Origin: a virus
DNA length: 64,000 nucleotides
Virus record (IMG/VR): IMGVR_UViG_3300044826_000112
Direction: 5' to 3' (one strand)
Part shown: one piece after another, positions 19,823-55,934 of the stretch
Layout of the letters: every line of letters begins with the position of its first letter
Numbering within the stretch: position 1 is the stretch's first letter
Notes under the pieces: generated by a model
What the model saw: the letters and a program-made list of their open reading frames with translations, nothing else
Database searches by the model: none
Told to the model about the DNA's origin: nothing
Position numbers and translations under genes: made by a program

Positions 19823-20650
19823 ATGACAGCCTTAGATATCGTAATGGGATTGGATCCCGAGTTCCACATACGTGATGTAGTGGACAAACTGAAAATAGTG
19901 AGGACTTTCCAGGGCAAACTGAATGGTTACAACCTGGACCTCATGATCCCCATCGAGGACCGTGACGGAGAAATCAGTCACATGTCAGCTGCTCAGATCT
20001 CTGGGCGTACTCGCCAGGTGATCAATGAGGAGTTAACCGCAAGAGAGAACTACCTGCTCCAGGAGACGGGCATTCTTACCTCTCTTCGCACCTATCTCTC
20101 AGTCTCTCCAGAGCTCGATCGTCACCACGTAGATGATCTGTTCGAAGAGCTGCGAGAGTATGCCACTCCGGCATTGGCAATAGCAGACGAAATGACTGGT
20201 CCGATGATAGTCGGTCTCATCTTCTCACGGCTGAAGATGCGTCACTTCATTGAGAATGGTCAGTTCGAAGACCCTTACTTCCTGACGCAGATCGACTTCC
20301 CGATGTACGAACGTCGGCAGTTGGTCCATGCGGTACTGCGAAGTGGCGGTATGGGTTTTGTAGTTGAGAGCTACAAGAACCGCTTGATGAAGTACGATTT
20401 GGACTCCCTATCTGTGATAGATCGGCGTGTTAATCACTATCTCACACGGATGTTTTCTGAGATAATGGAAATCCGTAAAGGTGGTGAATCCTATCTCGAG
20501 ATGCGTGACATCAACATCTCTCGGGATGACGAGAGTCGCATCCTGCGACTGCTCGAGCAGATGGAAGCCGAGACTCCCTTGCATGGCGATGAAGTCATAT
20601 TCGGGCTGATCTCTGATTGCTATCTGCAGGGGTTCAACCTGTTCAAATAG
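19823..20650 (+). CDS. Hypothetical protein
   Basis: Own GGTATAAG promoter and GAGGAGG RBS. Confidence 0.7.
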   Translation: MTALDIVMGLDPEFHIRDVVDKLKIVRTFQGKLNGYNLDLMIPIEDRDGEISHMSAAQISGRTRQVINEELTARENYLLQETGILTSLRTYLSVSPELDRHHVDDLFEELREYATPALAIADEMTGPMIVGLIFSRLKMRHFIENGQFEDPYFLTQIDFPMYERRQLVHAVLRSGGMGFVVESYKNRLMKYDLDSLSVIDRRVNHYLTRMFSEIMEIRKGGESYLEMRDINISRDDESRILRLLEQMEAETPLHGDEVIFGLISDCYLQGFNLFK

Positions 20651-20680: not shown

Positions 20681-22243
20681 GTGAGAAAACATAAAGGGTT
20701 CACGTATGAGTGGTACGACTACGACGCTCTGATGACGTATGCGGCTATCGATAACTACGTGACAAGTGCCATTCTGGCGGCCATGTGGCCAACGCTCAAT
20801 GAGCGACGAGACTACACTTTCTTTAAGCGTGGTCAGGCTCAAGTCGTGAAGACTCCGTCTATTCGTAATGAACAGTTGGAGGTCAAAAAGCTGGCGTTAG
20901 ACTTCGTGTGCGATATGGAAGTGGCAGGTATGGCTTACGACATCCCTGCTAACCGACGTATGCATCAAGCCATGTTGGAAGACTTGGCGATTACTGAGGA
21001 TCAGATCTTCACCGCCATCGGTAAGCGGATTGATCTGAACTCCGGTGCTGCTCTGGGTGATTTTCTTTACCGTGAACGCGGTTTTGACGTCCCTCTGCAG
21101 ACGAAGAGTGGTGGCGATTCAACATCTGGTGATGCTCTGAAGGCTCTGCACAAGATCCACGAGCATGACTGGCTGAAGGACATCATCAAGCGTAACGACG
21201 TGCACGCTATGCATGGCAACTTCATCAAGACCTATGTAGAGGACTGGGTGAAGAGCGACGGTCGGATCCATCCTCAGTACAACCTGTTCGGCACCAGTTC
21301 GCACCGTATCAGCTCCAGTGAGCCGAACCTGCTGAACCTGCCGCGTGGCTATTACGGCTACAACATCCGGGAACTCTACATCACTGTCCCGCCGATGGCC
21401 TTCCTGACCTTCGACTTCTCCTCGTGTGAAGTGAAGATCTTGGCGGCCCTCTGTAAGGATGAGGCAATGATGGATGCCTGTGCGAAGGGTTGGGACTTCC
21501 ACTCCTTCACCGCATCGATGATTGCAGGCGTACCGTACGAGGACTTCGTTAAGATTGCTAAGGATGAAGACCATCCGGAGCACAAGAAGTACAAGGGAAT
21601 CCGTCAGGATGCCAAGGCGACCACCTTCGGTCTGCTGTATGGCTCCACTGTAAACGGTATCGCCATGAACCTTGGCAAGTCCCTGGAAGAGACCCAGAAG
21701 ATCGTGGATACCTACTTCCGCTTGTTCCCGAAGGTAAAAGACTTCATCGAAGACTGCCACAAGATGGCTCTGGCCAACCAGTTCGTCTTCTCGCCATTCG
21801 GTCAGAGAAAGATGGAGTACGGTGCTCAGGACGTCTTCCGTGGCACTGCCGTGTACAACGCTGCTCTGCGGAACAGCCAGAACGTATCCATCCAAGGTCC
21901 GGCTTCTACTTTAGGTCTGATTGTGTTCGCCAAGCTGAACGAAGAGCTCAAGAAGATTGGTGGCCGGGCAATCTGTACGGTATACGACTCGGTGGAAATC
22001 GAAGTCCCGATGAATCGCATGGCAGAAGCCATCGAGCTCGGCTTCTACATGATGGATGACTGGCCTGTCGAGAACTTCGACTGGTTGGACTTCAAGATCG
22101 GTGCGGATGCTGAAATCGGTTGGGATTGGGGTAATGTACACGGCGTCAAACGTGGCATCACCCAAGAGAAGTGTGAAGAAATCCTCTCTGCAGCCAATGA
22201 AGAGAAGTATGTGACCTCCCGTCTGGTACTGGCGGCGGCGTAA
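20681..22243 (+). CDS. polA: DNA polymerase A, C-terminal part: ExoIII + polymerase domain
   Basis: YAAID (ExoIII); DGRIHP, RISSSEPNL.NLPR; motif A DFSSCEVKILA; motif B R..AKATTFGLLYG; motif C VYDS; own AGGAGG RBS with GTG start. Confidence 0.92.
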   Translation: MRKHKGFTYEWYDYDALMTYAAIDNYVTSAILAAMWPTLNERRDYTFFKRGQAQVVKTPSIRNEQLEVKKLALDFVCDMEVAGMAYDIPANRRMHQAMLEDLAITEDQIFTAIGKRIDLNSGAALGDFLYRERGFDVPLQTKSGGDSTSGDALKALHKIHEHDWLKDIIKRNDVHAMHGNFIKTYVEDWVKSDGRIHPQYNLFGTSSHRISSSEPNLLNLPRGYYGYNIRELYITVPPMAFLTFDFSSCEVKILAALCKDEAMMDACAKGWDFHSFTASMIAGVPYEDFVKIAKDEDHPEHKKYKGIRQDAKATTFGLLYGSTVNGIAMNLGKSLEETQKIVDTYFRLFPKVKDFIEDCHKMALANQFVFSPFGQRKMEYGAQDVFRGTAVYNAALRNSQNVSIQGPASTLGLIVFAKLNEELKKIGGRAICTVYDSVEIEVPMNRMAEAIELGFYMMDDWPVENFDWLDFKIGADAEIGWDWGNVHGVKRGITQEKCEEILSAANEEKYVTSRLVLAAA

Positions 22244-25805: not shown

Positions 25806-26094
25806 TACCGTATTGGCCGTATGCGAAGTGTACGACCGTGAGAATGAGCCGGATTGGGGTGTGCGGCACGACCCTTGTGGCATTCTGATCGGCGTCTCTA
25901 GTGAGGCTTTGGAAGCTCAGAAGAGGGAGATGGCTAAGCGTGATACTGCTAACTTCTCCTACGAGTACAATCCGATCAAAGTGTTCCGCACTTCGAACAT
26001 GGAGATTGCCCGAGAGGTAATCGAGAACCAGGTGCTGCACGTGGTCAACAACGATCGCGTGAAGTGGATCATGTCCGAGCTCAAACCGTTCTGA
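25798..26094 (+). CDS. Hypothetical protein
   Basis: GAGGA RBS before MTDTVL. Confidence 0.6.
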   Translation: MTDTVLAVCEVYDRENEPDWGVRHDPCGILIGVSSEALEAQKREMAKRDTANFSYEYNPIKVFRTSNMEIAREVIENQVLHVVNNDRVKWIMSELKPF

Positions 26095-39508: not shown

Positions 39509-39538
39509 GGGCTTCCGGCTGGGTATAAGTACTATGTA

Positions 39539-39604
39539 GCGGATAGCTCAGGTGGTGAGAGCACTGGACGTGTCCAGGGGTCGGGGGTTCGAGTCCCCCT
39601 CCGT
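39539..39604 (+). ncRNA. Mini tRNA-like RNA without an anticodon loop
   Basis: TAGCTCAG.TGGT.AGAGC D-arm; GGGGG-TTCGAGT-CCCCC T-arm; 5-bp acceptor; CTGGA-CGTG-TCCAG; own promoter. Confidence 0.7.
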
Positions 39605-39705
39605 TTTCTTTTAGTTTCCGCACATGTTCCTGGTATAAGTACTTCGAGAAGGAAACAGCTTCGTTATAGCTGTTATCCCCCATTCTACCTACGAAGGAGT
39701 GTGCC

Positions 39706-43878: not shown

Positions 43879-44070
43879 GTCCCATATGCACGGCTAGTCT
43901 CAAATGCTCTTCCATCCACGTGGGTTGAGTCAGTAATGGTAAAAGGCGAGATAGGCTTGGAGTGCAGGTGAAAGGCAGAAGGGCCTACTAGTAAGCTAGA
44001 CTACGTGGATTAGCTGAAGACAGGAAGATACGTTGAGTAGTCAAAGGTTCGACTCCTAAGTGGGACGCCA
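43879..44070 (+). ncRNA. 192-nt tRNA-like RNA
   Basis: GTCCCAT/GTGGGAC acceptor + G-CCA; AGG-TTCGACT-CCT T-loop; large internal domain. Confidence 0.7.
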
Positions 44071-49984: not shown

Positions 49985-50059
49985 GCATGATTAGCATAAT
50001 GGTAGTGCGACTGCCTTCCAAGCAGTTAGGTGACAGTTCGAGTCTGTTATCATGCTCCA
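49985..50059 (+). tRNA. tRNA-Gly(TCC)
   Basis: Cloverleaf, U73-CCA. Confidence 0.9.
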
Positions 50060-50116
50060 ATTTCTGCCCGGCCGGGGGTTTCGCCTCCTTTACCTCGGTT
50101 GGGCTTCTACATCACT

Positions 50117-50205
50117 GGGGGATGCTCACGCTAGCGGATTCCAAATCCGTCGACGTTAAATATGCGTGTGGTCGTCGTTGGGTTCGATTCCTACATCCTC
50201 TGCCA
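50117..50205 (+). tRNA. Atypical tRNA-Trp(CCA) lacking a D-arm, with an enlarged variable arm
   Basis: GGGGGAT/ATCCTCT-G-CCA; GCGGA-TTCCAAA-TCCGT; TTCGATT T-loop. Confidence 0.7.
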
Positions 50206-50260: not shown

Positions 50261-50734
50261 ATGCAAATCCAACAAGTATTCGTTGCAAACACTATCGTCA
50301 AGGAAAGCGACGAGATCGTCGATTTCACCGCTATGACTCCCGTACTGACGTACCTGGAGAAAGTCATTCCAGATGACGGCCTGATGTCGTGCGTTGTCGA
50401 CTATGACGATGAAGATATCAAGTACACCGGCGTAGACGTCAATCTCGGCAGAATGAACGGGAAGTTGGTCTTCACTGTATCCAAGGACCGTATCCTCTTG
50501 CCTCAACACGAAATCTCCTTCGTACCCTATCTGACCGAGGAAGGGGTCCCGCAGCTCATGATTTCAGTTCCGCCTGGCCGCATCGAGAAGATCGGCATGG
50601 AGGCCCTTGAGAAATACTACAATGACCACCTCGAGTTCGTACAGGTGATGCTGGGTCATTTCGCCTTGTTTGCGGACTTAAACTCTAAGAACGAACTAAA
50701 GGAGTTCATCGAGACTACACGGACATACCATTGA
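50261..50734 (+). CDS. Hypothetical protein
   Basis: AAGGAG RBS. Confidence 0.7.
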   Translation: MQIQQVFVANTIVKESDEIVDFTAMTPVLTYLEKVIPDDGLMSCVVDYDDEDIKYTGVDVNLGRMNGKLVFTVSKDRILLPQHEISFVPYLTEEGVPQLMISVPPGRIEKIGMEALEKYYNDHLEFVQVMLGHFALFADLNSKNELKEFIETTRTYH

Positions 50735-54059: not shown

Positions 54060-54194
54060 GCTCCATCAAGGTTTGCTTTGCAGGGAAGGATCCCTTCGAA
54101 GCGATATGGGTACGGTAGTGAGCTTGTTCGAACATCTCGAGTAAGTAGTGCTAGCGAGGTACCGAGACTGCGGGTTCGATTCCTGTGTGGGGCG
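54060..54194 (+). ncRNA. ~135-nt tRNA-like RNA
   Basis: GCTCCAT/GTGGGGC acceptor, GCGGG-TTCGATT-CCTGT T-arm, no encoded CCA. Confidence 0.55.
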
Positions 54195-55838: not shown

Positions 55839-55934
55839 GGAAGAGTCATCCGAAATTGGTATCGGTCCAGTCTTGAAAACTGGTCATCGGGCTAGTACCC
55901 CGTTGTGTGAGTTCGAGTCTCACGTCTTCCGCCA
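55839..55934 (+). tRNA. tRNA-Ser(TGA)
   Basis: Cloverleaf, long variable arm, CCA. Confidence 0.9.

Follow-up and report, generated by a model that had tools for sequence, protein, structure and literature searches.

An 89-nt element in the tRNA array of a phage is almost certainly a selected, tRNA-shaped RNA and not a pseudogene, and it is probably the functional tRNA-Trp of this phage, used in decoding, with a re-threaded and pseudoknotted core. The element lies at 50117-50205 (+ strand) of the window, i.e. the whole 64,000-nt stretch of viral DNA that was analysed (IMG/VR record IMGVR_UViG_3300044826_000112). Its D-arm is split and re-threaded rather than simply absent, the two strands of the D-stem flanking the anticodon arm. 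Both readings rest on sequence comparison, and the evidence that carries them is an alignment of eight distinct sequences (seven contig variants plus a copy in Vibrio phage 2.275.O) representing two lineages, in which, for many base pairs, a substitution on one side is matched by one on the other, so that pairing is kept.

Architecture of the element

The element consists of consecutive segments of 7, 10, 17, 27, 17, 7 and 4 nt. Its features, with columns referring to the alignment, are the following:

50117-50124, + strand: 5′ strand of the acceptor stem (8 nt; columns 1-8), pairing with 50194-50201
50125-50126, + strand: 2-nt linker CU in place of tRNA positions 8-9, unpaired in the supported model; U 50126 is invariant
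50127-50132, + strand: strand 1 of the rebuilt D-stem (columns 11-16), pairing with 50163-50168
50133, + strand: A joining the rebuilt D-stem to the anticodon stem, invariant in the 8 sequences
50134-50150, + strand: anticodon arm with a 5-bp stem and a 7-nt loop (GCGGA-TTCCAAA-TCCGT), including U33 and the CCA anticodon (50141-50143); loop positions 24-29 are invariant
50152-50155, + strand: 5′ strand (GACG) of a putative, variable-arm-like extra stem, pairing with 50173-50176
50156-50162, + strand: 7-nt linker carrying most of the one-sided substitutions (columns 40, 41 and 44)
50163-50168, + strand: strand 2 of the rebuilt D-stem (columns 47-52), covarying with 50127-50132
50169-50172, + strand: UGGU, invariant in 8/8 sequences, including the 75%-identical Vibrio copy
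50173-50176, + strand: 3′ strand (CGTC) of the putative extra stem, pairing with 50152-50155
50179-50193, + strand: T arm with a 4-bp stem and an invariant TTCGATT loop
50194-50205, + strand: 3′ strand of the acceptor stem (8 nt), discriminator G (50202) and encoded CCA (50203-50205)

The G73-CCA acceptor end, the anticodon arm, the T-loop and the 10 nt at the D position that a preliminary description of the sequence had listed were all found in place. These 10 nt (50124-50133) are unable to fold back on themselves, and the element is therefore without a D hairpin. The same description spoke of a tRNA with no D-arm, which is accurate for the hairpin but not for the stem, whose strands are split and moved. 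The strand at 50127-50132 enters the anticodon stem 5′ to 3′ through a single invariant A, with the polarity of canonical positions 22-26, while the strand at 50163-50168, located 3′ of the anticodon arm and followed by UGGU, has the polarity and context of canonical positions 10-13 followed by the D-loop with G18-G19. Judged from the sequence, the former is the counterpart of canonical 22-25 and the latter that of 10-13. The complementarity between CACGC (50127-50131) and GCGTG (50164-50168), on which the proposal of a substitute D-stem was based, was confirmed. By analogy, A 50133 would correspond to position 26; it lies opposite column 35 (50151), which is freely C, G or U, like position 44. 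UGGU may likewise stand in for G18-G19 of the D-loop in the elbow contact. The geometry suggests that five to six layers, an A.N layer and the 5-bp anticodon stem would add up to roughly the height of a normal D/anticodon stack.

The sequence 3′ of the anticodon arm includes a 27-nt insert (50151-50177), described initially as a 27-nt extra arm (CGACG...CGTCG). The insert is present, but its outer pair (50151-50177) is not kept, being C-G, U.G, G.G or C.U, and this leaves a stem of at most 4 bp. Within the 11 nt that separate the anticodon stem from the moved strand, GACG can pair with 50173-50176. Since these four base pairs cross the D-stem strand, they would create a pseudoknot with the order a-b-a′-b′.

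A 7-bp acceptor does pair in the classical register (50117-50123 with 50195-50201, including G1.U72 and G3.U70), as first proposed. A different partition fits better, however. Columns 8 and 78 form a G8-C78 pair that is invariant in all sequences, whereas 62.78 is U.C or A.C in every copy; both columns 8 and 78 being invariant, there is no covariation between them. With this constant G8-C78 pair, and with 62.78 unpaired throughout, an 8-bp acceptor and a 4-bp T-stem, 12 bp in all, are the better reading.

Homologues and their distribution

Homologous loci were gathered from Logan by means of the proteins flanking the element (8 clusters for the downstream protein, 11 for the upstream one). The element was found in 22 related metagenomic phage contigs, in the form of seven distinct variants with no indels, and it was present in every related contig reaching its site. 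The contigs without the element at that site either ended earlier or contained two extra genes inserted there, with the element located farther upstream (L029, L099 and L103). The flanking proteins are 51-98% identical between contigs; where they have diverged to 51-76%, the element still shows at least 91% identity. Conservation between contigs is high throughout the tRNA block, spacer included; conservation alone is thus weak evidence, and the pattern of change counts more than its amount.

A blastn search of GenBank phages identified a distant, unannotated copy with 75% identity in Vibrio phage 2.275.O (MG592671, positions 169943-170031), a 349 kb phage. Its segments have the same lengths as those of the window's element (7, 10, 17, 27, 17, 7 and 4 nt). 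It carries A1-U72, G2-C71, G3-C70 and G73, together with a CUCCAAA loop identical to the anticodon loop of enterobacterial tRNA-Trp. ARAGORN detected no second tRNA-Trp in the tRNA regions of this phage.

No further members were found in IMG/VR, either by a sequence-pattern search or among loci sharing both flanking proteins. The pattern search of JGI metagenomes returned 66 matches and no member: the majority, inspected by eye, had a tmRNA-like 3′ end, and a few were other long-armed tRNA(CCA) genes. A single chance match, inside a coding region, and no member was obtained from GTDB genomes. On these searches, the Trp-type layout is a rare one, represented by one GenBank phage and one uncultured group.

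Other unusual genes with a Trp anticodon were seen. JGI contigs L037 and L049 contain a tRNA(CCA) with a normal D arm and a variable arm of ∼20 nt, which forms another unusual Trp-anticodon class. Bacillus phage Z3 (PP003747, L113) has an unannotated tRNA-Trp(CCA)-like gene at ∼134978-135060 (minus strand), on which ARAGORN is silent and in which ∼28 nt, instead of 19, separate the acceptor and anticodon stems.

Compensatory changes in the helices

Among the seven contig variants, 16 of the 89 columns vary. Eight of these columns form four compensating pairs: 4-82 in the acceptor (G-C to A-U), 19-33 in the anticodon stem (C-G to U-A), and 12-51 (A-U to C-G) and 13-50 (C-G to U-A) in the D-stem. 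The last two, found in L031, L099 and L103, both lie inside the CACGC/GCGTG helix. Pairing is kept through wobble at 1-85 (G.U/A-U) and 3-83 (G-C/G.U), and four variable columns sit in the linker. Another variable column is the outer position of the supposed extra arm, which is C, G or U facing a constant G. When all eight sequences were considered, 10 of the 27 pairs changed on both sides yet stayed paired; none of 500 shuffles reached 10, and slid registers gave 0-1. The pairs changed on both sides are distributed as follows:

Acceptor: 2 pairs (4-82, 5-81)
Rebuilt D-stem: 4 of its six pairs (12-51, 13-50, 15-48, 16-47)
Anticodon stem: 2 pairs (19-33, 22-30)
Extra stem: 1 pair (38-58; C-G in the window, G-C in the Vibrio phage), the rest being invariant or broken once
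T stem: 1 pair (63-77; U-A in the window, G-C in the Vibrio phage)

Covariation of CACGC with GCGTG in homologues had been proposed as a check on the substitute D-stem; pairs 12-51 and 13-50 do change together, and so do 15-48 and 16-47. Column 47 is U, G, A or G, facing U, U, U or C, respectively. The D-stem of the Vibrio copy contains two adjacent U.U mismatches, and in the L031-type copies an A.C mismatch closes the anticodon loop. RNAalifold, run on the alignment only, predicted an 8-bp acceptor and a helix enclosing the anticodon arm. The helix formed by columns 11-16 and 47-52 is therefore supported, at the level of sequence, by compensatory change in two independent lineages (L031/L099/L103 and Vibrio phage 2.275.O), with the qualification that such events are not numerous and not all independent of one another: a single event may account for both D-stem pairs of L031. 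These changes and the RNAalifold helix together favour the substitute D-stem and the non-cloverleaf topology that had been suggested from the window sequence. As far as the alignment goes, all helices but the extra stem are shown to be well supported by compensatory change. The extra stem (50152-50155/50173-50176), of at most 4 bp and with one covarying pair, may form.

Two other foldings were considered. The minimum-free-energy structure, which is rod-like, was rejected: the helices peculiar to it lack compensatory changes and are disrupted in the Vibrio copy. A competing 7-bp pairing of columns 8-14 with 35-41, noticed by eye, may form in the Vibrio copy and is a caveat there; the window family cannot form it, and it is at odds with the constant G8-C78 pair.

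tRNA finders and single-sequence folding

ARAGORN in its bacterial modes made no call at the element, even with lowered thresholds and in intron mode, an outcome in keeping with the non-cloverleaf layout. Its mitochondrial mode produced two spurious predictions, a 51-nt and a 68-nt 'mt tRNA-Trp', in which the helix between the connector and the insert was taken as the acceptor stem. The Rfam tRNA model (RF00005) at its gathering score gave 23 hits in the window, the element not being one of them. The tRNA-Sec model (RF01852) scored the element at 28.7 bits (E 5e-4; threshold 47); the long acceptor stem, anticodon arm, extra arm and T arm were aligned, and 16 D-arm positions of the model fell on 6 nt. 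Compared with a cloverleaf elongator tRNA, the element has the acceptor with CCA, the anticodon arm and the T arm (TTCRANY loop, G53-C61), and lacks the D hairpin and a passing model score.

Folded as a single sequence, the element had a z-score of -0.17 relative to shuffles, and a 5-bp complement within 89 nt is unremarkable by chance. Since the single sequence does not rise above chance, the significance of the structure rests on the homologues.

A decaying tRNA-Trp pseudogene, which lost its D-arm, gained an insertion and acquired its apparent structure by chance, would also go uncalled by the detectors and fold no better than shuffled sequences. Such decay is very unlikely, given the ten pairs with compensatory changes, the invariance of UGGU and of the T-loop, the identical segment lengths in a 75%-identical copy from an unrelated Vibrio phage, and the lack of indels in the eight variants.

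Genomic setting

The window is phage DNA encoding a primase, a family-A DNA polymerase, a nicotinamide phosphoribosyltransferase and a radical-SAM protein. Its relatives in GenBank are only distant (Salmonella phage Arash and Vibrio phages D69, D181 and D148), with primases that are 35-37% identical. ARAGORN called 23 tRNAs in the window, as did Rfam, located between 39.5 and 60.4 kb and all on the + strand. No tRNA for Trp, Cys or Arg was among these 23 calls, which agrees with the initial claim that the element is the only Trp tRNA of the window. The element is preceded by a tRNA-Gly(UCC) that ends 57 nt 5′ of it, and followed, 55 nt downstream, by a gene for a 157-aa protein (start at 50261). 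In the ORFs of the window, TGG makes up 13.7 of every 1000 codons. Arash and D69, both distant relatives, contain an ordinary tRNA-Trp in their arrays, with acceptor and anticodon arms resembling those of the element; the tRNA-Trp of D69 scores just 37.7 bits and has an irregular D region.

The 57-nt spacer 5′ of the element differs from the remaining tRNA spacers in the arrays, which measure 1-10 nt. It contains a G+C-rich hairpin (50066-50104; 12 bp, 15-nt loop, -23.8 kcal/mol, z = -2.7) that shows no variation across the related contigs and is more conserved than the adjacent tRNA-Gly; it could be a processing or stability element. The tRNA-Gly(UCC) itself (49985-50059) exists as two alleles with ∼20 differing positions (that of the window versus that of L021, L022, L024 and L027) in a block that is otherwise near-identical, which points to mosaic exchange inside the tRNA array.

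Several other RNAs of the window depart from standard tRNAs. The one that ARAGORN calls 'tRNA-Ser(gga)' (39537-39608) is a tRNA-like RNA whose D and T arms are normal, but its anticodon stem (CTGGA/TCCAG) is closed by a 4-nt loop and it thus lacks an anticodon; repeated promoter-like motifs (GGTATAAGTACT) flank it. Positions 55839-55934 contain a class II tRNA-Ser(UGA) called by neither ARAGORN nor Rfam; it has D and T arms, a long variable arm and G-CCA, and pair 7-66 is a G.G mismatch. Two oversized tRNA-like RNAs (43879-44070, ∼192 nt; 54060-54194, 135 nt) have acceptor-like ends and T arms, with big inserts replacing the D or anticodon arms. A scan of the window for orphan T-arms returned only the element, the RNA at 54060-54194 and the tRNA-Ser(UGA), and no rewired tRNA-Arg or tRNA-Cys was found. 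The array of phage Arash (45000-64000) also includes atypical members: an amber suppressor-like tRNA with a CUA anticodon, an 84-nt long-arm tRNA(CAU), a tRNA(AUU) and a tRNA-like gene whose anticodon loop is abnormal. Stop recoding was considered for an in-frame TAG located between 19823-20650 and 20681-22243, and discarded: these are separate genes, with a ribosome-binding site of their own, and the polymerase homology begins after the TAG.

Probable tryptophan identity

The identity set of bacterial TrpRS, as known from E. coli, comprises the CCA anticodon, G73, A1-U72, G2-C71 and G3-C70. The initial proposal that the element carries TrpRS identity elements holds for the anticodon (C34 C35 A36, 50141-50143) and for discriminator G73 (50202), both invariant in the 8 sequences; the window nevertheless has G.U rather than A-U at 1-72, and G.U at 3-70. 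G2-C71 is invariant in the 8 sequences as well. Pair 1-72 is G.U in six variants, including the window, and A-U in two (L029 and the Vibrio copy), while 3-70 is G-C in 6/8 variants and G.U in two (the window and the L031 type). The 27 nt at the 3′ end of the element are 96% identical to the annotated tRNA-Trp of T5-like Proteus phages, which has G3.U70 too. The CCA anticodon, G73, G2-C71, the A1-U72 pair of two variants, the 96% match at the 3′ end and the lack of another Trp tRNA make the element most likely to be the phage's tRNA-Trp.

Some of these features are not exclusive to tryptophan. G3.U70 is the mark recognized by AlaRS, and SerRS ignores the anticodon. A change in the D-arm (G24A), the Hirsh suppressor, reportedly lets the E. 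coli tRNA-Trp read UGA. The element might accordingly be charged with Ser (on account of its long extra arm, G73 and G2-C71) or with Ala (through the G3.U70 of the window and the L031-type copies), or be a tRNA-Trp that also reads UGA in a Hirsh-like manner. This group of possibilities is improbable. G3.U70 is not conserved, 6/8 variants having G3-C70, and it occurs in the ordinary tRNA-Trp of Proteus phages; the extra stem, of just 3-4 bp, is anchored in the core, in contrast to the free arm of the Ser type; and TGA ends 35 of the 92 predicted ORFs of the window, with no gene seen to need TGA read-through.

The element could instead be a structured tRNA mimic with no part in decoding, acting as a decoy or sponge that draws off TrpRS, a modification enzyme or a host nuclease directed against tRNAs, or as a regulatory RNA among the other RNA tools of the phage. 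This phage does have other tRNA-like RNAs without decoding features (39537-39608, ∼43879-44070 and 54060-54194), tRNA detectors reject the element, and selection on its structure is compatible with such a role. A decoy, however, would not need everything that is kept here: a 7-nt loop with U33, the invariant CCA anticodon, the 12-bp stack, G73 and the CCA end. The element is, moreover, the sole Trp candidate in two phages with otherwise near-complete tRNA sets. A mimic is therefore considered unlikely, and decoding tRNA-Trp is the preferred reading.

Comparison with known tRNAs

The element shares with canonical tRNA-Trp(CCA) (the E. coli trpT type and those of Proteus phage Stubb, MH830339 32116-32191, and of Arash) a CCA anticodon in a 7-nt loop, G73, an encoded CCA and a G-rich acceptor. 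It lies in a phage tRNA array, and the 96% match to the Proteus phage genes covers its T arm and the 3′ strand of its acceptor. It differs from the canonical form in lacking a D hairpin, with D-stem strands that flank the anticodon arm, in having a 27-nt insert where a variable loop of 4-5 nt is usual, in its 8/4 rather than 7/5 stems, and in its 1-72 pair, which is mostly G1.U72.

The closest parallel in layout is a tRNA-Arg(UCU)-like gene of phage Felix O1 (NC_005282, ∼25951-26032; L118:2352-2433). It is 82 nt long and unannotated in RefSeq, scores 31.7 bits with RF00005 and is missed by ARAGORN. Matches to it were found in 263 GenBank phage records belonging to several families, mostly unannotated or mislabelled (as tRNA-OTHER, TERM or tRNA-Leu, or lying within an 'HNH endonuclease' CDS). 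In an alignment of seven sequences of this Arg type, Vibrio phage 1.101.O has CAC in place of the connector CTC and, correspondingly, GTG in place of the GAG located beyond the anticodon arm; an invariant TGGA comes next. In both types, the connector after the acceptor has its pairing partner on the 3′ side of the anticodon arm, and the resulting helix encloses that arm; both have a GUUAA-like linker after the anticodon stem, and an invariant GG segment after the moved strand, followed by the T arm. The Arg type differs in its Arg identity, A73, length of 82 nt, 7/5 stems and rebuilt stem of 3-4 bp. It also lacks the extra 4-bp stem, its fold being nested in contrast to the putative pseudoknot of the Trp element. 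No paper on the Felix O1 Arg(UCU)-like type was found in the literature searched.

(8/4) allo-tRNAs, 8/4 and 9/3 tRNAs, tRNA-Sec, tRNA-Pyl and armless mitochondrial tRNAs have been described (PMC7609411, PMC5389517). With (8/4) allo-tRNAs, phage (8/4) tRNA-Ser and tRNA-His, and tRNA-Sec (PMC5389517; RF01852), the element has in common the 8/4 stems stacked into 12 bp, the long extra arm and the occurrence in phage clusters. All of these tRNAs stay cloverleaves and retain a D hairpin, in many cases one with a long stem and a small loop, whereas the element does not. Animal mitochondrial tRNA-Ser(AGY) likewise passes from the acceptor stem to the anticodon stem without a D hairpin. In that tRNA a short, unpaired loop replaces the hairpin, and specialised mitochondrial factors work with it; the element, in contrast, rebuilds an equivalent of the D-stem at full length with a strand from the variable region, in a setting of bacterial translation. 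The full-text literature searched, which takes in few subscription journals, yielded no account of a tRNA whose two D-stem strands lie on either side of the anticodon arm.

Proposed function and significance

A functional tRNA-Trp of this kind would be cotranscribed with the neighbouring tRNAs and processed. The RNA is expected to fold into an L-shape in which the 8-bp acceptor stacks on the 4-bp T-stem, giving the 12 bp of any tRNA, while the 5-6 bp helix in the place of the D-stem would extend the anticodon stem. One strand of this helix (50127-50132) would come from the acceptor stem and continue into the anticodon stem, the other (50163-50168) being supplied from 3′ of the anticodon arm. 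The UGGU that follows would contact the T-loop as G18-G19 do, and the short extra stem (50152-50155/50173-50176) may clamp the two linkers, generating the pseudoknot. The host TrpRS would charge the RNA by way of the CCA anticodon and G73, and the charged tRNA would read UGG.

The re-threaded core might itself be an adaptation. TrpRS, EF-Tu and the ribosome would still accept such a tRNA, while host enzymes that recognize the D-arm or the core, such as tRNA-cutting defence nucleases, would be evaded; alternatively, decoding would be loosened as in the Hirsh mutation. This suggestion is a tentative one, and more doubtful than the assignment as tRNA-Trp.

To our knowledge, the textbook view is that every tRNA used by bacterial ribosomes is a cloverleaf. 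The known exceptions have altered stem lengths (tRNA-Sec, allo-tRNAs) or are mitochondrial. In its outer shape the element remains a tRNA, but it has a D-stem that is wired differently and a putative added pseudoknot, and its helices are maintained through compensatory change in two unrelated phages. The occurrence of the layout in a Trp type besides the Arg type argues for a general design and not a one-off. If the RNA is charged and used, the translation machinery would require the L-shape rather than the cloverleaf; current finders would be under-counting the tRNA sets of phages, which would affect analyses of codon usage and host takeover; and a new scaffold for orthogonal tRNA engineering would be at hand. 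Should the core prove to be an adaptation, phages would have arrived at a second way of folding a tRNA, distinct in topology and functional in bacterial translation.
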